DNA of 64,000 nt from an uncultured delta proteobacterium (GTDB lineage Bacteria > Myxococcota_A > Polyangia > Polyangiales > JAFGIB01). The position numbers were made by a program, and so were the translations under genes. The notes under the pieces were generated by a model, which was given only the letters and a program-made list of their open reading frames with translations, ran no database searches and was not told where the DNA came from. The DNA lies in NCBI GenBank assembly GCA_963778655.1, contig CAVZVA010000009.1, positions 906,235-970,234 on the forward strand, in the 5' to 3' direction. Below, in pieces: positions 12,092-24,195 of this stretch; within the stretch, counting starts at the first letter, position 1; each line of letters opens with the position of its first letter.

Positions 12092-14128
12092 TCAGGGCGG
12101 GGTTCCTTCCGCCGCCGGCGCCTGCCGTTTCAGCAGCCGCCGGTATTCGACCGCATGCGATCCGGCCGGATAACTCTCGAGGTAGCGATTCATGGCTCGT
12201 TCGGCCCTGGGCTGCTCGCCCATCGCGCGGTAGGTCGCGATCAGCAGCTCCAGCTCGCGGGCGCTGCTCGCTTTGTCCTTGAGCACGCGCACCACGCAGT
12301 CGTTGTCACCGCGTGACAGACAGTCGAGCGCCTGTTGCAGCCGAGCTTGAGGTGCGTCGGCAGCAGCTGGCGCCGGCCGCGCGGCGGGTGGCGCCTGGGG
12401 CGGGGCGGACGGTTGTATGGCCGGCGCGGGTGTGGGGCTCGGCTCTGGCGGCGCGGGGCTCGGGGCGCTGGCTCTCGGCGGTTGGCTCGGCTCCACCCCC
12501 GAGAGCGCCGTGGTTTGAGCGGCTCGCGCCGGTCCGTGGCTCGAGGTGTGCGGCACGCCGCTCGGCGGCGCGTGCGGCGCCTCGTGTGTCGAGGAGGAGC
12601 CCGCGGAGGAACCTCTGGGCGGTTCGTTGTTGGGCGGTGCCAGCGCCTGGGATGACCCGCTGCCCAGCGTCGGTGCGCTGGCAGCCGGCTGGCCGGCGTG
12701 AGCCGCGTGCGTGGGGGCTGCCGAGGCCGGCGCTGCCGCCGCCGGAGCAGGTAACGGTGCTGGAGGAGCCTTTGGCGCGGACGCTGCAGGGCTCGGGGCG
12801 GGCTCGGGATGACTGACGACCTCTTGCCCCGCGCCGACCGTGCCTCCGCCGAACACGCGGGCCAGCCCTGCCGCCGCGGCTAGCCCCGTACCGAGAATCA
12901 CCCACAGCATCCAGCGCGATCCCTCTGAGTGGCGATCGACATCCGGGAGCATGAACGGGGTTTCGTCGAGCGCGTGCTCATCGTCGCCTGAGGGCAGGGT
13001 CACGCGGGAAGCAGCCTCGCGCACGGTGGTGGCACTCGGCGCGCGCTCCCCAGGGTCGCTGCCGGGGGCCACGGGTCTTGCCGCCTGTGCCCGCAGATCA
13101 TCGGTGCGCCCCGGACCAGGAGGTCGATCGCTGGTCACACGCGACGGCCGATCGCTGTCGCCCGCGCCGGGGTGGCCGGTTCGCGCGGAGAGGCTTTCGG
13201 GTGGGGGCCGGCTGCTGTCTCCCGTCGGGCTGAGCGGGACGGACCGTTCCGGCGCCGCGGGGCCATTGCTCCCAAGCGAGGCGCCACGCCGGGTTCGATC
13301 CAGCCGCTCCCGCAGCGTGCCGGTCGCCGCGCCCGGCGACAACGATCGGGGCAGCAAGGGCGAGGGGCCGGCGTTCCTACGGGTCGCGGCCGCCGGCCGC
13401 GGCGGCAGGGGCGACCGCGGTGGGGGCCGTGGGGAAGGCCAAGGGCTGGGGTCGGCCGGGGCGCGCGAGGCGCGCGCCGGGGGCGAGGACGAAATAGGCT
13501 TGTTGGCGGCGACCTCTACAGTCGGGCTGGCGGGCAAGGGGGAGGGAGGCAGCGGCGAACGCGGGGCGGCTTTGGGCTGCGGAGGCGAGGACTCGGGTCG
13601 CGTGGCCGCGACCCCGCGCAGGGTCGGAGAGCGGCGCATCAGGGCGCTATCGATGATCTGGCGCGTCCCGGGGCTCGGCTCGCCCGGAGTGGCCAGGATT
13701 GCGAACGGCTGGGCGGCCGTGTCCGATGCCCGCACCCGCGGTGGTGGCCCGCTGCTGGTGCGGCGGTCCGAATCGGTCCGATTACGCTGGCGCTCGATCA
13801 GGGCGCGTTCGACGATGCGCTCCACGGCCTCGCGTCCGTCCGCCTCCAGGCGCACAAAGCGCACGCCCATGCCGGCAGGGCCACGGGGATCGCTCTTGTT
13901 TCGCTGCCAGACCACGCGGCCGGTTCCGCGGAAGTAATCGTCGGCCACGTCCGCCGCGCATTCGAAGCGGATCAGGGCGCCGCGCGGGGACGGGCGAGGG
14001 GTGAGGATGAACATCCCGCCCGGGGAAATGTCCCGGCACTCGCCTTCGCGTGGCTCGGTCATCGTCGGCTCGCGGTACCGAGCCACGAGCGATACCTGCA
14101 GGCGGCCTTCTTTTCGGGTGTCGTTCAC
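12092..14128 (-). CDS. PilZ-domain (c-di-GMP receptor-type) single-pass membrane protein with Pro/Ala-rich linkers and a TPR-like C-terminus
   Basis: GTG 14128 overlaps the rmlA stop (GTGA at 14128-14125). Both PilZ motifs are intact: RKEGR (RxxxR) and DISPGG (DxSxxG). About 330 aa of Pro/Ser/Ala-rich low complexity follows, then a TM helix ([21 protein letters not shown]), more Pro/Ala-rich sequence, and a helical C-terminus ([30 protein letters not shown]). The ORF-track start at 14227 would overlap rmlA by about 100 bp. Confidence 0.7.
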
Positions 14129-15009
14129 GCGTTGGGGAGGTCGTCGAGCAGGGACATCAGGTACTGCCCGTACGCGGTCTTGCTCAAGGCAGTGCCCAGT
14201 TGCTCCAGCTGGGCAGTCGTGATCCAACCATTGCGGAAGGCGATTTCTTCAGGGCAGGCGAGCTGCAGGCCCTGGCGCACCTCGATCGTATGAACGAATT
14301 GGGCCGCGTGCAGCAGGGCGTCCGGGGTGCCGGTGTCGAGCCAGGCAAAGCCGCGCCCGAGCCTCTCCAGGTGGAGCGCTCGGCGCTCGAGGTAGAGCCG
14401 GTTCAAGTCGGTGATCTCGAGCTCTCCGCGGGCGGAAGGTCGCAACGAAGCCGCCAAGTCGCTGGCTTGGCCGTCGTAGAAGTACAGGCCGGTGACAGCG
14501 TAGTGCGACTTCGGCTTGGCCGGCTTCTCCTCGAGGCTGATCACGCGGTCCTGCGCGTCGAGCTCGGCCACGCCGTAGGCCTCGGGGTCTTTGACCCAGT
14601 AGCCGAATACCGTGGCCCCGGTCTCGCGCTTGGCCGCGCGCTCCAGCACGCCGCTAAGCCCGCCCCCGTAGAAGATGTTGTCGCCCAAGACCAGGGCGCA
14701 CGGTCGGCCGCCCAGAAACTCGCGCCCGATCAGGAACGCTTGAGCCAGGCCGTCCGGGCTGGGTTGGACCGCGTACGAGAGGTCGAGCCCCCACTGGCTG
14801 CCGTCCTGGAGTAAGGCACGGAACGCGCTCTGTTCGTGGGGCGTGGTGATGACCAGGATGCGCCGGATCCCCGACAGCATCAGCGTGGTGAGCGGGTAGT
14901 AGATCATCGGCTTGTCGTAGACCGGCATGAGCTGCTTGCTCACGCCACGAGTCAGCGGGTGCAGCCTCGTGCCTGTGCCTCCCGCCAAGATGATCCCCTG
15001 TTCAATCAT
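14125..15009 (-). CDS. rmlA: glucose-1-phosphate thymidylyltransferase
   Basis: [40 protein letters not shown] is the canonical RmlA N-terminus. The protein is full length at 294 aa. Confidence 0.95.
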
Positions 15010-15248
15010 TGAGTCTCTCCTGGTGTTCCCGCCGTTCGGCTAGCGGAACCTGCCGCTCGGCGCAAGGGGCCGCCATTCGAGGTGCGACCCGTGCTCGAGA
15101 GCCTAGCGGGCCACCCCGGGACCGGCCACAGGATACCGCAGCAATGTGCTGGCAACGGAATAACGCGCGCCAGGACGAGCTGGTCTGGGCACCCACTTGT
15201 GCGATACTCCTCCGATCCGCAAGGCCGACGGCAAGGGACCGCGCGCAC

Positions 15249-16313
15249 ATGAGCTCAGGCAACATCCTCGTTACCGGCGGAGCCGGCTTCATCGGCTCGA
15301 ACTTCCTCAACCTGTGGGTGCCGCGCCAGCCCGATCGGCTGTTCGTCAACGTCGACAAGCTCACCTATGCCGCCAACCTCGGCAACCTGCGCGCGATCGA
15401 TGCACGCGACAACTACCGCCTCGAGCGCATCGACATCGCGGACCGCGACCAGGTCGCGGACGTGTTCGAGCGGCACCAGCCCGAGCTGGTCGTGCACTTC
15501 GCCGCGGAGAGCCACGTGGACCGCAGCATCGAGGAGCCGGACGCGTTCATCCGCACCAACATCGATGGCACCTTCAACCTGCTCGAGGCATTCCGCCGCC
15601 TGCACGCGCGCCGGCCGAGCGCACTGTTCCACCACGTCAGCACCGACGAGGTGTACGGCTCGCTGGGCGATCAAGGGTATTTCACCGAGAGCACGCCCTA
15701 TGATCCCTCGAGCCCGTATTCGGCATCCAAGGCCTCGAGCGATCTGCTGGTGCGCGCGTATGCCCGCACCTACGGCTTGTCGGTCAAGATCACCAACTGC
15801 TCGAACAACTACGGCCCGTACCAATTTCCCGAGAAGCTGATCCCGTTGATGATCCTCAACGCGCTCGAGCGCAAGCCGCTGCCGGTCTACGGCGAGGGCA
15901 AGAACGTGCGCGATTGGCTCCACGTGGAGGACCACTGCGAGGCGATCTGGGCGGTGATCGAGCGCGGCCGCATCGGCGCGACCTACAACGTGGGCGGTCG
16001 CAGCGAGCGCCGCAACCTCGACGTGGTCCAGGAGATCTGCCGGCTGGTCGCGGAGGAGACCTCCGCGCCGAGCGCGGAGTTGCTCGGTCTGATCACCTAC
16101 GTGCGCGACCGGCCCGGCCACGACCTGCGCTACGCGATCGACGCCTCCAAGATCGAGCGCGAGTGCGGCTGGCGCCCGCGGCACACCTTCGCTACCGGCC
16201 TGCGCGGCACCGTGCGCTGGTACCTCGAGAACCGCGCATGGGTCGACGAGGTTCGCACCGGCGACTACCAGCGCTGGATCGACGCCAACTACGGGCGGCG
16301 CTCCCCGGCTTGA
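15249..16313 (+). CDS. rmlB: dTDP-glucose 4,6-dehydratase
   Basis: ATG 15249 gives [19 protein letters not shown]. Further motifs: [21 protein letters not shown] (YxxxK) and [17 protein letters not shown]. The ORF-track start at 15009 adds an implausible 80-aa leader across the divergent intergenic region. Confidence 0.95.
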
Positions 16314-18439: not shown

Positions 18440-20002
18440 ATGACCAGGTGGTTGGCTGGCGCACCGTGGGTGCTCGCGGCGGTCATTTTCGGCACGGGCT
18501 GCGGGCTCGCGCGAAGCCCCGAGCTTTCCGGCGACTCGCGCGCGCCACAGGCGACGGTGGCCGTGCCCACGCGCAATACCGTTACCAACAACAACGGCAA
18601 CGACACCACCCAGAGCTTCGGCCCCATGGCCGTGCCCACCACGCCGGTGATGCCGATGCAGACCGGCGGCCTGCAGTGCGGTGGAGTGTTTTGCCCCTTT
18701 GCCGCCGATCCGATTCAGCCGTGCTGCACGTCCGAAGCCGATGTCACGGCAGGCGCGGCGCGGACGGCGGGCCAGTGCGGCCTCGACTTCAGCCAAACCG
18801 CCGCCACCTACTACGGCGGCTCGTGCTGGCAGCGCGATCAGCTCGGCGTGGTCGATGACCGCTGTCCTGCGGTCATGGTGGCCGGCGGGCTGCAGGAGCC
18901 AGGCTGCTGCAGTGACCAGGGCAAGTGCGGGGGGCTGAACACGACCGAGATGCTCGGCTGTCATTACGCGGCCGGCGAGACGCCCAAGCCGTGCGGCATG
19001 ATGGACGTCGAAAAGGACAAGACCTGCGAGCCGCTCGGCATTTTCGGCATTCGCTCGCTGGTCGACGTGTCTTGGGGCGGGCGTTCCGGCGGATTGGTCG
19101 GCTTGACCGACGACGGCCGGGCAATGATGACCTTCCACTTGAAGGTCACCGTCAGCAGCATCGATCCCAACACCAACGAGGTGCACGGCGAGGTCCAGCC
19201 GTGCAACGTGGTGCTGCCGCCGTTCTACAGCACCACGCTGTGCGAGTCGTACTTCCCCGAGTTCCCGGTTTCGATCTGGGAGAGCCCGAAGCTGCCCAAG
19301 ATCGAGCTGAGCGGCCGCTACCAATGCCTCAATCCCGGCTGCATCATGACGATCGACGCCAAGACTGCGCTGCTCGGCATCGATCTGACCAATCCCGAAG
19401 CGCCGTGGCCATCACCCACGGATACGCCCTCGCTGAGCTGCCCTGCCGGAAGTGGTGCGCAATGCTTCCCCGATCAGGACAACGACAAGCTGCCTGGGAT
19501 GACGGTCAAGCTGCGCACGATGGGCATGGCGCCGCCCGGCGTCGGCTGTGCGAATACCGGATACGCCTTTCAAGGCGCGCCGCTCAGCTCGAGCCCGGCC
19601 GCGATCTTCGGCGGCGTGCGGCGCGCCGACCGTGTGCTGCTGGGAACGCGGACCAAGCTCGGCGGCTCGGGCAAGATCTCCGACGACTGCAACAGCGGAA
19701 GCGGTACCGGCATTGCCGAGTTCGTGCAGTCGCGGGCCTGGGGCTGCCTGGTGCAACCGGGCACCGCGGACTTTCCCGGGCCGGCGGCGGGGCCGAACGA
19801 GGCCTGCGGCGCGGCTCAGGCCCAGTTCCTCGATGAGAACATGCCGATCTACAACATCCTCGCCGTGGGACAGGCACCCGACCCGATGCTCAACGTGGTC
19901 GACAAGTCGGTCAGCGAGGGTTCCAAGTTCAGCATGGTGCGTCTGGGCAAGCTCGGCGACACCGTGACCTGCGCGGACGTGCGCAACGCGACTTATCCCT
20001 GA
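18440..20002 (+). CDS. secreted Cys-rich lipoprotein, unknown function (module A + module B)
   Basis: ATG 18440 gives MTRWLAGAPWVLAAVIFGTGCGLA (lipobox). The N-terminal Cys-rich module reads QCGGVFCP...CCTS...QCG...PGCC...CGG...GC. It also has a roughly 400-aa C-terminal domain shared with the next gene. The ORF-track start at 17603 runs antisense through the dCMP deaminase gene. Confidence 0.75.
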   Translation: MTRWLAGAPWVLAAVIFGTGCGLARSPELSGDSRAPQATVAVPTRNTVTNNNGNDTTQSFGPMAVPTTPVMPMQTGGLQCGGVFCPFAADPIQPCCTSEADVTAGAARTAGQCGLDFSQTAATYYGGSCWQRDQLGVVDDRCPAVMVAGGLQEPGCCSDQGKCGGLNTTEMLGCHYAAGETPKPCGMMDVEKDKTCEPLGIFGIRSLVDVSWGGRSGGLVGLTDDGRAMMTFHLKVTVSSIDPNTNEVHGEVQPCNVVLPPFYSTTLCESYFPEFPVSIWESPKLPKIELSGRYQCLNPGCIMTIDAKTALLGIDLTNPEAPWPSPTDTPSLSCPAGSGAQCFPDQDNDKLPGMTVKLRTMGMAPPGVGCANTGYAFQGAPLSSSPAAIFGGVRRADRVLLGTRTKLGGSGKISDDCNSGSGTGIAEFVQSRAWGCLVQPGTADFPGPAAGPNEACGAAQAQFLDENMPIYNILAVGQAPDPMLNVVDKSVSEGSKFSMVRLGKLGDTVTCADVRNATYP

Positions 20003-20122
20003 ACCAGCTGCGCGTTCCTGCGGCGCTCCCCCACGGCACTGTGCAAAACAGGCCACCGTTGTGTTCCGCAGGTAACCGCCTAGACTCCGCCTAGGGGAAA
20101 GCTTGCGAGGGTGCTGCCTGTG

Positions 20123-22981
20123 ATGCGGATTGATCGACTCGTCTCAACCGTCCCACTCGTGTTGTTGATGGCCGCCGGCTGTTCGGGCTCGCACAACGCG
20201 GACAAAGTCGACGGCGGCGCGATGCAAGATGCCGGCGGCGGGGGGAGCACCAAGAACGACGCCGGCAAGGACGGGTCGGTCAAGCCCGGCACCGGGGGAA
20301 AGGGCAGCGGCGGGACAGGCGGCAGCGGCGGGACAGGCGGCAGCGGCGGTGGCGGCGATGCCGGGTCGATGAGCTGCGGCAAGCAGACCTGCATGGCGCC
20401 CTCGACCTGCGACACCAGCGGAAGCACGCCGGTCTGCACCTGTCCCCCGCACTACCGGCTGACAACCTCGGGCACCACCTCGAGTTGTACGGATATCGAC
20501 GAGTGCGCCACTGCAGCGCTCAACGACTGCGACAGCCACGCGACCTGCACCAACACGCCCGGCGGCTATGACTGCGCCTGCAACGAGCCGGCCTGGAGCG
20601 GCGACGGCAAGAGCTGCGCCTGCGCCAGCGGCTACAGCGACAGCTCGGGCGACTGCAAGGCCGACGACGGCACCGCTTGCGGCTCTGACGACGACTGCAC
20701 CAACGGTCACTGCGTGGCTTCGGTGTGCTGCGCCAGCGCCTGCGATGGCCCCGGCGCGTGCCAAGTCGCCGACGGCGCCACCTGCGCGGATGGCTCGACC
20801 TGCGTGTATGCGGCGGCAGACGACGGCACCGCCTGCGACGACGGCGACGGCTGCACCATGACCGACACCTGCAGCGGTGGCGCCTGTACGGGCAGCGGCA
20901 CGCCGGATTGCAACGACGACAACCCATGCACGGCCGACAGCTGCGTGTCGCCGGGCGGCTGCACCCACGACGGCACTGGCATCACAGACGCCTGCATGGT
21001 CGGTGTCGCAGACGTGTGCAACACCTACCAGTGCCGTGGCGACGCCGCAGGCCATTGCGACAGCACCCCGACCGCGACGGCGATGAGCTGCACGAGCCTC
21101 AACAGCCAGTGTACGACCGGCATCTGCGATCCCACTGCCGGCTGCATGGCGATGGCGACCCGCGAAGGCATGGACTGCGACGACGGCGATCCCTGCACGG
21201 ACGGCGAGGTTTGCACCTCGGGCACGTGCACGGGTGGCACTGCGCAGAGCTGCAACGATGGCAATCCGTGCACCGACGATCTTTGTGCGGCGGGGGTGGG
21301 TTGTCAGTACAACGTCAACGCTGCGTCTTGCGACGACGGCAATCCGTGCACCCAGAACGACCAGTGCTCAAACGGTGCCTGCCAGCCCGGTGCTTTGAAG
21401 AGCTGCCCTGGGGACACCTGCAACGATGGCGTTTGCAACACGTCGAACGGTAACTGCGAGAAGACCCCGAAGTCGGGTACGATCTCCTGCGATGACAACA
21501 ATTCCTGCAGCGCCAGCAGCACCTGCTCGAACGGGACTTGCCCGTACAACGGCAGCACCGACGCATGTGGCGCCGGCGCCACGGACTGCAACGGGTCGGG
21601 CGCATCGCCCGACTGCACGTGCGACACGGCCAACGGCTACACCAAAGTCAACGGCGTGTGCGTGCCCACGGTCAACGAGTGCGACAGCAATCCCTGCGTG
21701 AACATTGCGAGCTGCACGGATCCTTCAGGCAACAGCGGAGACTTCAGCTGCCAATGCCCTGATGGCTACAGCGGCGACGGCAAGGTGTCCGGGACCGGCT
21801 GCACCAATATCAACGAGTGCGCCGGCGATCCATGCGGCACCGATTCCGGCACTCAGTGTGTCGAGAACTCGCCTGGGCAAGGCTACCATTGCAACTGCGG
21901 CTCGGGCTTGGTCTCCATCGATCCGACCGCAGACGGCGTCAACAACCCGACCTGCGCCTGCAACATGACCGGTACATTTGCGGTGCGCCTCGCCACGCCC
22001 CTCAGCTGGCCGCCGGTCACCAATTCGTTGACCGGAACCCAGGTCATCGACGGCGGCTCGGAGACCACCTATTCGTGGGCGATTCGGCGGATGACCTACG
22101 ATTCCAGCGGCAATCTGTCGGGCACCGTTATTCTCTGCGGCGCGACCACTCCCGATCTCTGCGGTGATGGGGTCACCGGGTTCATCGCGCCCGAGGCCTA
22201 CGCGCAGTTCGTGTCCAATCAGGCGTGGGGCACGGGGAACGCATGCCAGTGCGAGGGCACCTGCCAATGCTCGAGCTGTCCCAGCAAGGCGACCACGAGC
22301 ATTGCATCGTTCGCCCTGCCCAACGCGCGCAAGGATCAGCCGTATCAGGAGCCGCTTACCGCGCAGCTGTTCGGTATCTCTCTGACCGATCCGTTCGGCG
22401 CCTGGCCCGCGAGCCGCTCGAACGTTGGCGCCGCCGGATCGAGCGGCGGGACCAACGGGGCCGTCTGGGTCGACCACGACGGGGATTGCAACCCTGGCGT
22501 GACCAGCTACGCCGTGCCTTCGGGCGGCATCGGCATCGACAACGCGATCCCCGATCCTCCGTTCGCCTATCCAGCCAATTCCGCGGCGTGTCCGCGGGGC
22601 GCCAGCCATCAAAATGATCCACGCTTGCCGTACGCGTACGTTCCACAGAGCGAATTCGGGGCCGTTCGACGCGTCAACGAAGTCTACAGCGCACAACGTG
22701 TCATCAGTCAGCTCAAGGGCACCTTCGCCGACTGCGACAACATCTCCGGAGACGTGGTGGGCCCCAACAATGGGCCGATCCAGAGCGATTCCCGAATCCA
22801 GGGTTGCACCGACGACTCGTCTGACGGCGTGTGCGGCAGCAGTATCGTGAGCAGCCTCGACACCACGCCGCAGAGCCAAACCATCAGCAACGCGACGTTC
22901 GTGATGAAGCGCCTGTCCAACGACAGCAACTTCACGGTCAGCTGCGACCACATCCGGAACACCGACTTGCCCAAGCCGTAG
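20123..22981 (+). CDS. large secreted lipoprotein with cbEGF-like modules and Myxococcus-type cysteine-rich repeats (module B at C-terminus)
   Basis: The signal/lipobox is MRIDRLVSTVPLVLLMAAGCSG (GTG 20111 is an alternative start). A Gly/Ser/Thr spacer follows. EGF-like units are present: DIDECATAALNDCDSHATCTNTPGGYDCAC, VNECDSNPC...FSCQCPDGYSGDG and NINECAGDPCG...YHCNC. Repeats of the CxDGNPCTxDxC type occur many times. The C-terminal domain is homologous to that of 18440-20002. Confidence 0.85.
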   Translation: MRIDRLVSTVPLVLLMAAGCSGSHNADKVDGGAMQDAGGGGSTKNDAGKDGSVKPGTGGKGSGGTGGSGGTGGSGGGGDAGSMSCGKQTCMAPSTCDTSGSTPVCTCPPHYRLTTSGTTSSCTDIDECATAALNDCDSHATCTNTPGGYDCACNEPAWSGDGKSCACASGYSDSSGDCKADDGTACGSDDDCTNGHCVASVCCASACDGPGACQVADGATCADGSTCVYAAADDGTACDDGDGCTMTDTCSGGACTGSGTPDCNDDNPCTADSCVSPGGCTHDGTGITDACMVGVADVCNTYQCRGDAAGHCDSTPTATAMSCTSLNSQCTTGICDPTAGCMAMATREGMDCDDGDPCTDGEVCTSGTCTGGTAQSCNDGNPCTDDLCAAGVGCQYNVNAASCDDGNPCTQNDQCSNGACQPGALKSCPGDTCNDGVCNTSNGNCEKTPKSGTISCDDNNSCSASSTCSNGTCPYNGSTDACGAGATDCNGSGASPDCTCDTANGYTKVNGVCVPTVNECDSNPCVNIASCTDPSGNSGDFSCQCPDGYSGDGKVSGTGCTNINECAGDPCGTDSGTQCVENSPGQGYHCNCGSGLVSIDPTADGVNNPTCACNMTGTFAVRLATPLSWPPVTNSLTGTQVIDGGSETTYSWAIRRMTYDSSGNLSGTVILCGATTPDLCGDGVTGFIAPEAYAQFVSNQAWGTGNACQCEGTCQCSSCPSKATTSIASFALPNARKDQPYQEPLTAQLFGISLTDPFGAWPASRSNVGAAGSSGGTNGAVWVDHDGDCNPGVTSYAVPSGGIGIDNAIPDPPFAYPANSAACPRGASHQNDPRLPYAYVPQSEFGAVRRVNEVYSAQRVISQLKGTFADCDNISGDVVGPNNGPIQSDSRIQGCTDDSSDGVCGSSIVSSLDTTPQSQTISNATFVMKRLSNDSNFTVSCDHIRNTDLPKP

Positions 22982-23071
22982 ATCGGCCTCGCTCAAGGCG
23001 CGGCGCGCTGCTCGCGCCTGCGCCCCGCCCGACCGGCAGCGCTGGCGCTCGATGGCGCGCCTGGCACGAAG

Positions 23072-23374
23072 TCACTGGTTGAGCAGCCAGACCCACAGGC
23101 CGATCACAGAGGCTCCGACCCCGGCCATGCCGACGTAGACGAGCCAGTCCATGCTCAGCTGACTTGCGATGTAGGCCACGGCCCACGAGAGCAAGAACGG
23201 CACCATGAAGATGCGCACCGCGCGGAACAGCCCCTCAATCGGTCCGTCGGGCACGGGCTCGTCGTCGTCGTCCTCGAGCTCATCCTCCGCTCCGGGCGGC
23301 TCCTCCGGCCCGGAAGCCTCGGCGGCTTGCGGCTCGACCTCGGGCTCTTGCGGGTCCTGATCGGAGTGATCCAC
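23072..23374 (-). CDS. small membrane protein with an acidic N-terminus, unknown function
   Basis: The 100-aa product has an Asp/Glu/Pro-rich first half (EDELEDDDDEPVPDG). Two hydrophobic helices follow (IFMVPFLLSWAVAYIA, VYVGMAGVGASVIGLWVWLL). I recognise no family. Confidence 0.5.
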   Translation of the reverse strand: MDHSDQDPQEPEVEPQAAEASGPEEPPGAEDELEDDDDEPVPDGPIEGLFRAVRIFMVPFLLSWAVAYIASQLSMDWLVYVGMAGVGASVIGLWVWLLNQ

Positions 23375-23469
23375 GTCCTGCTCGCGGGGCGCAGCCTAGC
23401 CGCCGTCTCGCGGCAGCACCAGCCCCGAAAGCGAGGCCTCGGGAGCGGGGCAGGATCCGCCGTGCCGGC

Positions 23470-24195
23470 TCAGTGGCCGCCGGTGCCCATGCCGCCGGTG
23501 CCCATGCCGCCGGTGCCCATGCCGCCGGTGCCCATGCCACCGGTGCCCATGCCACCGGTGCCCATGCCGCCGGTGCCCATGCCGCCGGTGCCCATGCCGC
23601 CGGTGCCCATGCCGCCGGTGCCCATGCCGCCGGTGCCCATGCCGCCGGTCCCCGCGCCGGCCGCGCCCATCGGCGGAGCAGTGCCGTCGCAGTTCTTGGG
23701 TTGCAGGCCGGGCGCGATCAGCGCCAGGAGCATGCTGTTGCGCGGAATGCAGCCCATGCCGGTGAGCAGATCTTGGATGCCGCAGGTGTTCGTGTTGGGC
23801 ACGCAACAGCCCGGCACGTTGTTACCCATGATGGTTTCATCCGGGCACAGCGACGAATTCTGCATCGGCGCCATGCACTGCGCGTTCGAGGTGTCGAGCG
23901 CAGCGTTGTGCGTGCCGCACTGGTTGGCGCTGGTGCAGCAGATCTGCACGCACGCGGCCGCGAGGCCGGCTGACACCGCAGGGCACGCGACACCGCCGCA
24001 GCTCGTGATCGGCGTGGCCGGCATCGGGCACAAGCTCGCGGGCATACCGCCGGTCCCCGGCGCCGTGCTACCGCCCGTGCCGACCACGGTCGTGCCGCCG
24101 GTGCCTGCGGCCCCGGCTGCGTCGTTGTTCTTCTTGCTGCTGCAGCCTAGAGCCGTCACACAGCACACCCAAACCATCGTTGTTCTCCACCACAT
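23470..24195 (-). CDS. secreted Cys-rich lipoprotein (module A) with a C-terminal (GTGGM)n repeat tail
   Basis: The signal/lipobox is MVWVCCVTALGCSS. The Cys-rich module reads SCGGVACP...CCTSANQCG...PGCC...CG...GC. The C-terminus consists of 11 GTGGM pentapeptides and ends in GTGGH. Confidence 0.7.
   Translation of the reverse strand: MWWRTTMVWVCCVTALGCSSKKNNDAAGAAGTGGTTVVGTGGSTAPGTGGMPASLCPMPATPITSCGGVACPAVSAGLAAACVQICCTSANQCGTHNAALDTSNAQCMAPMQNSSLCPDETIMGNNVPGCCVPNTNTCGIQDLLTGMGCIPRNSMLLALIAPGLQPKNCDGTAPPMGAAGAGTGGMGTGGMGTGGMGTGGMGTGGMGTGGMGTGGMGTGGMGTGGMGTGGMGTGGMGTGGH
23476..23650 (-). repeat. 15-bp tandem repeat, about 11.7 copies (coding: GTGGM pentapeptide)
   Basis: The plus-strand unit is gccRccggtgcccat, repeated head-to-tail from 23476 to 23640 (11 full units), followed by a partial unit. 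The only variation is G/A at unit position 4 (A in the units starting 23536 and 23551). Confidence 0.95.

Follow-up and report, generated by a model that had tools for sequence, protein, structure and literature searches.

Myxobacterial social behavior and predation rely on envelope and matrix proteins, and to our knowledge most myxobacterial lipoproteins have no assigned domain. In TbpB and fHbp, which are surface lipoproteins, the C-terminal part is a soluble eight-stranded beta-barrel. TraA from Myxococcus xanthus is a polymorphic cell-surface receptor with a distal PA14 lectin-like domain that has a predicted Ca2+ site; its long run of Cys-rich tandem repeats, a "rigid stalk", was likened to Pfam00526, and the protein is expected to be fully disulfide-bonded (PMC3325183). 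The features of TraA-type receptors are the PA14 domain, Cys-rich repeats (TIGR04201), and a MYXO-CTERM tag (TIGR03901) (PMC3325183). Here we describe a locus that encodes three neighboring predicted lipoproteins, P1, P2, and P3, in an uncultured member of the Polyangiales. The locus lies in a 64,000-nucleotide stretch of DNA (the window), which corresponds to positions 906,235 to 970,234 of contig CAVZVA010000009.1. A preliminary description of the window, made without database searches, had proposed that these Cys-rich proteins are built from two shared modules (A and B), that neither module is a named family, and that the proteins look like a recombining and diversifying surface or matrix system. 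We are confident that the shared modules are real, that they represent undescribed families, and that the locus is a conserved arrangement and not a shuffling one.

All three open reading frames (ORFs) were present at the coordinates given, and their translations contained every motif that had been quoted. P1 (positions 18440-20002, + strand; 520 amino acids) has a signal with Cys21, a low-complexity linker (residues 22-75), module A (residues ~78-186, with 12 Cys; 18671-18997, + strand), and module B (residues 196-520, also with 12 Cys; 19025-19999, + strand). P2 (20111-22981, + strand; 956 amino acids) has a lipobox with Cys24, a Gly-rich linker (25-95), an EGF/cbEGF region (~96-175), Cys-rich repeats (176-505), another EGF region (506-616), and module B (617-956; 21959-22978, + strand). 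P3 (23470-24195, - strand; 241 amino acids) has a lipobox with Cys18, a Gly/Thr-rich linker, module A (residues ~64-150), and a tail of 12 copies of GTGGM that ends in a terminal His. Thus, module B closes P1 and P2, and module A opens P1 and P3, as had been proposed.

The similarity between the two copies of module B was evident from pairwise comparison: residues 196-520 of P1 are 23% identical to residues 617-954 of P2 (BLASTP, E = 4e-5, 368 columns). When we compared a profile of the P1 family (69 sequences) to a profile of the C-terminal region of P2 (9 sequences) with hhalign, the probability of homology was 99.2% (E = 3.2e-19, 303 columns), and the blocks that had been matched by eye were all in register. 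The module is shorter than the ~400 amino acids first given for it; it spans ~325-340 amino acids. It does not seem to belong to any described family. With hmmscan (E ≤ 1), no Pfam family matched P1 or the module B region of P2, NCBIfam had no meaningful match for P1, P2, or P3, and searching our profiles against all PDB sequences found nothing significant. The nearest candidate was cyanovirin-N (CVNH), with a 65-residue match to an engineered chain (E = 0.012, 17.5 bits). This is below the threshold for significance and there was no Pfam CVNH match, so we take it to be a chance match. We found neither module described in the literature that we searched.

The relationship between the modules A of P1 and P3 is more remote. 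Pairwise BLASTP gave no significant match (E = 14) and comparisons of hidden Markov models (HMMs) to sequences gave marginal scores (E = 0.02-0.11); within the window, the two modules were each other's best tblastn matches (E = 0.07-0.38). With profiles that were trimmed to the module, hhalign reported a probability of 90% (E = 1.6e-6) across 80 columns, with 11 collinear Cys: residues 80, 85, 95/96, 113, 129, 142, 156/157, 163, and 174 of P1 align with residues 66, 71, 86/87, 93, 107, 117, 130/131, 138, and 149 of P3. The result was stable when we enriched the P3 profile with three P3-type sequences from related loci (91%, E = 1.1e-6). The preliminary description had named, as the result that would undo it, similarity that did not go beyond a bias towards Cys. 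We found the opposite. Across 200 column shuffles of the P3 profile, the mean score was 10.7 (standard deviation 2.1) and the maximum was 18.7, while the observed score was 37.8. Furthermore, neither module A profile matched the head of P2 (563 amino acids with 76 Cys; probability 0.1-0.3%, E = 0.23-0.55), which implies that richness in Cys does not explain the match between P1 and P3. Profile alignments, shuffles, and this control thus bear out the claim that two modules are shared across the three neighboring proteins, and module A appears to represent remote but real homology.

Before trimming, the P1 profile had a 48-column match to the P3 profile (probability 42%) that was shifted in register, and trimming to the module resolved this. 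The trimming and the register-shifted alignment together exposed an internal repeat: module A looks like two tandem units of ~40 amino acids each, of the form C-P-x(8-13)-C-C-x(3-6)-C-G. The C-terminal half of the module from P1 matched the N-terminal half of the module from P3 (92%, E = 6.5e-7), and the N-terminal half from P3 matched its own C-terminal half (E = 1.2e-4); the two halves from P1 did not match each other. When modeled alone, module A of P1 had a predicted local distance difference test score (pLDDT) of 90.6, and Foldseek found no match for this model in PDB at E ≤ 1e-3 and none in BFVD. For P3, hmmscan found no Pfam family (E ≤ 1), and the only match in NCBIfam was at chance level and was on the tail (E = 0.54). 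So for both modules, the claim that they are not named families held up in Pfam, NCBIfam, PDB sequences, and Foldseek searches of PDB and BFVD.

P1 has 111 homologs, mostly near full length and with 33-72% identity, and those that carry an organism name are all from metagenome-assembled genomes (MAGs) of Polyangiales or Myxococcales. Similarly, a search for P1 in species-representative genomes found only eight loci, all in MAGs from Polyangiales, Myxococcales, or Sandaracinaceae. Because a profile of P1 alone barely reaches the P2-type proteins at database scale, we used a mixed P1 and P2 profile for an exhaustive HMMER search. This identified at least 826 clusters (at the 50% identity level) with E ≤ 1e-3, of which 221 had E ≤ 1e-30. 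In all 150 of the matches listed, module B ends at the C-terminus or within ~45 residues of it. The family includes proteins of ~390-480 amino acids (lipobox, Gly-rich linker, and module B); proteins of ~500-560 amino acids that resemble P1 in having module A (about a dozen clusters); and proteins of ~700-1190 amino acids, with up to 127 Cys. The N-terminal partners of module B are of at least four kinds: a bare Gly-rich linker, module A, arrays of EGF and Dicty_CTDC repeats, and, once, a pretoxin HINT domain (PT-HINT). This last protein, P0243 (metagenomic, 577 amino acids), has a lipoprotein signal, the HINT domain at residues 69-197 (E = 6e-9), and module B at residues 224-575; this arrangement suggests that module B may be cleavable from its anchor in some lineages. 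The family is also paralogously expanded within genomes, as one MAG (prefix OEZ06_) has a P1-type protein, a short-linker protein, and a second long protein at dispersed loci (OEZ06_03815, OEZ06_21265, and OEZ06_30705). Another contig (L011) has a P1-type paralog with no P2 neighbor.

The conserved core of module B was examined across 123 representatives. Three Asp residues are nearly invariant (D345 in 93%, D347 in 99%, and D349 in 98%; numbering from P1) and are followed by G353 (93%); the family consensus here is D-x-D-x-D-G-x-P-G. This has the form of a DxDxDG calcium-binding loop. Four arginines are also conserved (R404 in 93%, R432 in 92%, R501 in 89%, and R515 in 93%). The near-invariance of the Asp triad and of the four arginines suggests a putative Ca2+ site beside a site for an anionic ligand. 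Other core positions are G200, W212, C255, G256, P260, W280, G313, W323-P324, C417, C436, C456, D465, and C511. Among these representatives, there is no conserved constellation of His, Ser, Glu, or Lys such as is typical of hydrolases or lyases, which suggests that module B is more likely to be a binding module than an enzyme. In the AlphaFold2 model of P1 (pLDDT 89.1; predicted template modeling score (pTM) 0.87), disorder extends over the first ~70 residues, module A forms a small mixed domain, and module B is beta-rich with eight long strands of 8-20 residues each. Because the model reached a pTM of 0.87 despite ~75 disordered residues, it supports a fixed placement of the two modules relative to each other, with module A appearing to pack on module B. 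Foldseek found no match for this model in PDB at E ≤ 1e-3 and none in BFVD. Some of its weak matches were to OmpX, OmpA, and autotransporters, and we therefore considered a membrane-embedded barrel of the outer membrane; we rejected this in view of the conserved disulfides and of the charged residues in the long strands.

We judged the lipoboxes by eye and by pattern against [LVI][ASTVI][GAS]C. P2 (LLMAAG|C) and P3 (VTALG|C) have canonical lipoboxes. P1 (IFGTG|C) departs from the pattern at -3, but its Cys is conserved across the family alignment, and a loose lipobox pattern is present in 82 of the 119 complete representatives of the family. In all three proteins, the signal Cys is followed by a low-complexity linker that is rich in Gly, Thr, and Ser. 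The number of Cys in the mature protein after the lipidated Cys is even in each case (24 in P1, 90 in P2, and 14 in P3), which is consistent with complete disulfide bonding outside the cytoplasm. We also noticed that in P1, the lipidated Cys begins the sequence CGLARSPEL (residues 21-29; positions 18500-18530 of the window). P1-type proteins and several short-linker members of the family share the motif C-x-[LFI]-[DE]-R-[ST/x]-P at this point (as in CTLDRSPAL, CSIDRSPEF, and CALDREPSQ), and P2- and P3-type proteins have C-S-S/G-G instead. The post-Cys motif of the P1-type proteins could be a sorting or retention signal.

Between the linker and module B of P2 is a long region of EGF domains and Cys-rich repeats. 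Pfam recognizes EGF_CA (PF07645) at residues 128-169 (27.9 bits, cutoff 27) and EGF (PF00008) at residues 524-556 (26 bits, cutoff 21.5); a cEGF match was below its cutoff, as was a match to Dicty_CTDC (PF00526; 16.5 bits, E = 0.0075, gathering cutoff 27). A pattern search identified five C-x-D-[DG]-[GDN]-x-C-T units within residues 176-505. When we scanned P2 and 26 of its long relatives with Pfam (E ≤ 1e-3), Dicty_CTDC was found in 16 of the 27 proteins (best E = 9.4e-69), EGF_3 in 15, cEGF in 11, and EGF_CA in 9. Arrays of EGF and CTDC repeats are rod-like modules that are stabilized by disulfides and Ca2+. The preliminary description viewed this region as an adhesion-like head. However, P2 is predicted to be anchored at its N-terminus and ends in module B, so the EGF/Cys-repeat region is a stalk or spacer between the anchor and module B, and it is module B that is distal. 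The Gly-rich linker of P2 also contains a perfect 18-base-pair (bp) repeat (positions 20303-20357, + strand; 2.6 copies, 100% identical; GGTGGSGGTGGSGG), which is prone to length variation.

The locus is conserved well beyond this genome. Genes for a major facilitator superfamily (MFS) transporter, dCMP deaminase, P1, P2, and a small membrane protein follow one another in this order in at least six other contigs from MAGs (L001, L002, L004, L005, L006, and L009; L003 and L008 duplicate the gene set of L002), in which P1 is 54-72% identical to the window's copy. A kinase gene comes next in four of these six (L001, L002, L005, and L006), and a P3-type gene lies within a few kilobases on the opposite strand in four (L001, L004, L005, and L009). 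Compared to L001 and L005, amino acid identity is 77-78% for module B of P1, 75-81% for the MFS transporter, and 79-83% for the kinase, and it is 56% for the stalk of P2, 41-67% for module B of P2, and 43-54% for module A of P3. We also computed the ratio of nonsynonymous to synonymous changes (dN/dS), using a rough, gene-wide Nei-Gojobori method and with dS of 0.65-1.3, so these ratios are approximate. The ratio was 0.20-0.21 for module B of P1, 0.18-0.31 for the MFS transporter, 0.17-0.20 for the kinase, 0.32-0.39 for the P2 stalk, 0.24-0.40 for module B of P2, and 0.53-0.57 for module A of P3. By these comparisons, P1 appears to be an ordinary constrained gene, like the flanking MFS transporter and kinase genes, and evolution in P2 and P3 is two- to threefold faster. 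We saw no gene-wide positive selection: dN/dS is below 1 for every part, even for P3, where the ratio is highest.

Module B of P2 from L001 (L001:8023-9075) stands apart. When delimited by best domains, its identity to the window's copy is 48%, as compared to 71% for L005, and it has lost about half of its Cys, with 9 in place of the 15-17 in the others. Yet for P1 and for the stalk of P2, L001 and L005 are about equally distant. This oddity would fit episodic change and suggests domain replacement, decay, or a burst of divergence that may have affected module B in one lineage.

The tail of P3 is encoded by a 15-bp tandem repeat (positions 23476-23653, - strand) with 11.9 copies that are 98% identical. 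Orthologs of P3 keep the tail, and the fifth residue of the repeat varies (M, T, K, R, or H). The 98% identity of the repeats, together with the variation at the Met position in orthologs, indicates that the all-Met GTGGM array has been homogenized recently, and the 15-bp array should readily expand and contract. The regular spacing of Met and the terminal His might represent a putative metal-binding site.

We observed the homologies, the architectures, the synteny, and the pattern of conservation directly; from them we infer the localization of the proteins, the binding of Ca2+, the ligand, and any cooperation between P1 and P2. The explanation that we favor is a vertically inherited neighborhood in Polyangiales-type Myxococcota that would encode three envelope proteins that are rich in disulfides, anchored by an N-terminal lipid, and built from two domains that are absent from the domain and structure libraries that we searched. 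The proteins would be exported by Sec, lipidated, and disulfide-bonded, and would then lie on an envelope membrane, most likely the outer membrane. There they would present module B, which would bind an anionic ligand (for example, a polysaccharide or a component of the matrix or envelope) in a Ca2+-dependent manner. Because every listed member of the family has its anchor at the N-terminus and module B at the C-terminus, module B is presumably the distal and functional end. P1 would keep module B near the membrane, with module A packed against it, and in P2 a rigid stalk that may be stabilized by Ca2+ would place module B at a distance from the membrane. Module A would be a knot of ~100 amino acids with six predicted disulfides, which stands alone in P3 and is followed there by a Gly-rich tail that is probably prone to slippage. 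As a whole, we give this account of a conserved locus for lipid-anchored proteins with a Ca2+-dependent distal binding domain slightly better than even chances. The binding mechanism by itself is more tentative, and we rate it somewhat short of even. A bolder version is doubtful: that module B is a new Myxococcota-specific fold family of Ca2+-dependent lectin-like domains that are carried by many paralogous surface lipoproteins, that P1 and P2 form a two-tier display in uncultured Polyangiales for matrix attachment or for contact with other cells or prey, with one copy of module B near the membrane and one on an EGF/CTDC stalk, and that module A is a second new disulfide-knot domain that can act alone.

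Several observations weigh against the binding-domain account. The copies of module B in the window lack the Gly of the DxDxDG motif, with DQDNDK in P1 and DHDGDC in P2. The Foldseek matches of the P1 model are all weak (best E = 6e-3, template modeling (TM) score 0.14-0.32, probability ≤ 0.38), so the beta-barrel proteins among them (PsbO, OmpX/OmpA, LolA-like proteins, and a COG4313 channel) are no more than a hint of fold class. The lipobox of P1 (IFGTG|C) is non-canonical at -3, and the sequences alone do not separate a surface location from a periplasmic one. No annotated homolog supports any function, and the neighboring genes (MFS transporter, dCMP deaminase, and Ser/Thr kinase) do not point to one.

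How do the alternatives compare? The preliminary description had suggested that neighboring genes actively exchange heads, bodies, and tails, as a local surface or matrix system that diversifies by recombination. The modular part of this idea stands: across the family, module B is indeed joined to several kinds of N-terminal parts. Furthermore, replacements in P2 and P3 accumulate two to three times faster than in P1 and the flanking genes, the nearly identical 15-bp array in P3 is prone to changes in length, and module B of P2 in L001 has diverged in both sequence and Cys content. Active shuffling at this locus is another matter. Gene order and architecture are constant in at least six other contigs, down to 54% identity of P1; the copies of module B are just 23% identical, so their duplication is old, and the copies of module A can be recognized only by profiles, so no recent exchange is visible; and dN/dS is below 1 everywhere, with P1 as constrained as its housekeeping neighbors. 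Also, tblastn and profile searches found no further module copies or cassettes within the 64-kilobase window. Given the conserved order, the low identity of the module B copies, and the low dN/dS, the locus appears to be an old conserved arrangement that is not actively recombining, and we consider a diversifying system to be improbable. It is more improbable still, by a little, that module B is an enzyme, such as a Ca2+-dependent polysaccharide lyase or hydrolase, or an effector that is cut from its anchor and released. Pectate-type lyases use Ca2+ together with an Arg base, so the nearly invariant Asp triad and four arginines would suit an enzyme. In polymorphic toxins, the domain after a pretoxin HINT domain is the released C-terminal domain, and the HINT domain directly before module B in P0243 keeps this explanation alive. 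But the HINT domain was in just 1 of the 27 proteins that we scanned, and module B resembles no enzyme family in Pfam, NCBIfam, or PDB and lacks the conserved His, Ser, Glu, or Lys that are typical of hydrolases and lyases. There is also no evident immunity-like gene adjoining P1 or P2, and a toxin that works inside a cytoplasm would not be expected to have so many disulfides.

The weak structural matches raise a further alternative, in which the proteins face the periplasm and module B is a barrel that carries or chaperones hydrophobic cargo there, in the manner of LolA, LppX, lipocalins, or PsbO. Most of the matches are to barrels or half-barrels (LolA3, a DUF1329 protein, LmcA, PsbO, and a viral lipocalin), and the model of module B does have eight long strands. 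However, none of these matches exceeds a probability of 0.38 or a TM score of 0.32; the conserved positions are charged (Asp and Arg) and do not line a hydrophobic cavity; and the ~500-residue EGF/CTDC stalk of P2 fits poorly with a carrier in the periplasm, so this explanation strikes us as quite unlikely. Least probable of all, and by our estimate very much so, is that the similarities are compositional, arising from Cys- and Gly-rich sequence, and that there are no real shared modules. The poor pairwise and HMM-to-sequence E-values for module A (14 and 0.02-0.11) are what such an explanation would predict, but it is refuted for module B by E = 3e-19. For module A, it is at odds with a score of 37.8 against at most 18.7 from shuffles, with the failure of the profiles to match the far more Cys-rich head of P2, and with the stability of the result when P3-type sequences were added.

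The other genes near P1, P2, and P3 are more familiar. The window has a G+C content of ~69%. The region is flanked on one side by genes for an Atg22-like MFS transporter and dCMP deaminase, and on the other by a gene for a 1397-amino-acid Ser/Thr kinase that carries an AAA_16 domain. Between P2 and P3 is a small ORF (23072-23374, - strand; 100 amino acids), the N-terminal half of which is very acidic and the C-terminal half hydrophobic. Its position is conserved, between P2 and P3 or the next gene, in L001, L002, L004, L005, and L006 (33-51% identical); the counterparts in L001, L002, and L004 have 81-108 amino acids. Pfam had no match for this ORF. Further upstream, the translations read as a glucose-1-phosphate thymidylyltransferase-like protein (14125-15009, - strand) and, within 15009-16313 (+ strand), as a dTDP-glucose 4,6-dehydratase-like protein. 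At the position in L001 that corresponds to 14125-16313 of the window, there are dTDP-sugar isomerase and RmlD-type genes, so deoxysugar genes lie near the lipoprotein locus there as well.

Elsewhere, a short-linker module B gene (P0153) in contig L013 lies beside four uncharacterized genes (603, 300, 592, and 244 amino acids; L013:4535-12195), which were not matched by our module A and B profiles, and beside a gene for a Redoxin/AhpC-TSA thiol-disulfide protein. An HSP70-family gene (L013:13017-14591, 524 amino acids) is also near P0153, and in L011 an Hsp70-like ORF (L011:4762-7542, 926 amino acids) is directly upstream of the P1-type gene. The presence of Hsp70/MreB-like genes near module B genes in two different contexts may be a coincidence.

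Described systems each account for part of this locus. In polymorphic toxins the N-terminal delivery part is conserved, the C-terminal toxin varies, and an immunity gene is adjacent; here it is the C-terminal part that is conserved and the N-terminal part that varies, and PT-HINT is absent from P1, P2, and P3 and occurs only in the distant family member P0243. EGF and cbEGF domains and the CTDC arrays of Dictyostelium (PF07645, PF00008, and PF00526) account for the stalk of P2 only, and modules A and B are unlike these repeats. Similarly, module B resembles DxDxDG calcium loops only at the level of the motif, and in the window's copies the Gly is replaced by Lys (P1) or Cys (P2). In general layout, the module B proteins are like TbpB and fHbp: lipid-anchored at the N-terminus, with a flexible linker that leads to a beta-rich C-terminal domain of about eight long strands. 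We treat this likeness as a lead, as neither sequence searches nor Foldseek matched P1 to these proteins and as module B, unlike them, is rich in disulfides.

What we found is thus not a novel type of biological system, as modular Cys-rich envelope proteins with a stalk and a tip, such as TraA, are already known in this phylum. Our analysis does delimit two domain families that are outside of Pfam, NCBIfam, and PDB, as searched, within a phylum-restricted family of lipoproteins and in enough detail for new family models, and for module B it provides a confident predicted structure and a candidate functional site (the Asp triad and the conserved arginines). P2 is not a member of the TraA family, as it has none of TraA's defining domains: PA14, TIGR04201, and MYXO-CTERM had no match in P1, P2, or P3 (Pfam and NCBIfam, E ≤ 1). 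The topology is also inverted, as TraA has an N-terminal PA14 domain and a C-terminal MYXO-CTERM anchor while P2 has an N-terminal lipid and a C-terminal module B. And in contrast to the polymorphic TraA, there is no sign of polymorphism of the TraA kind, with P1 as conserved as its housekeeping neighbors. Nevertheless, TraA appears to be the closest functional precedent for P2: by analogy, both would be myxobacterial envelope proteins that hold a distal, globular, and putatively Ca2+-dependent domain on a Cys-rich stalk, with the anchor at the opposite end.

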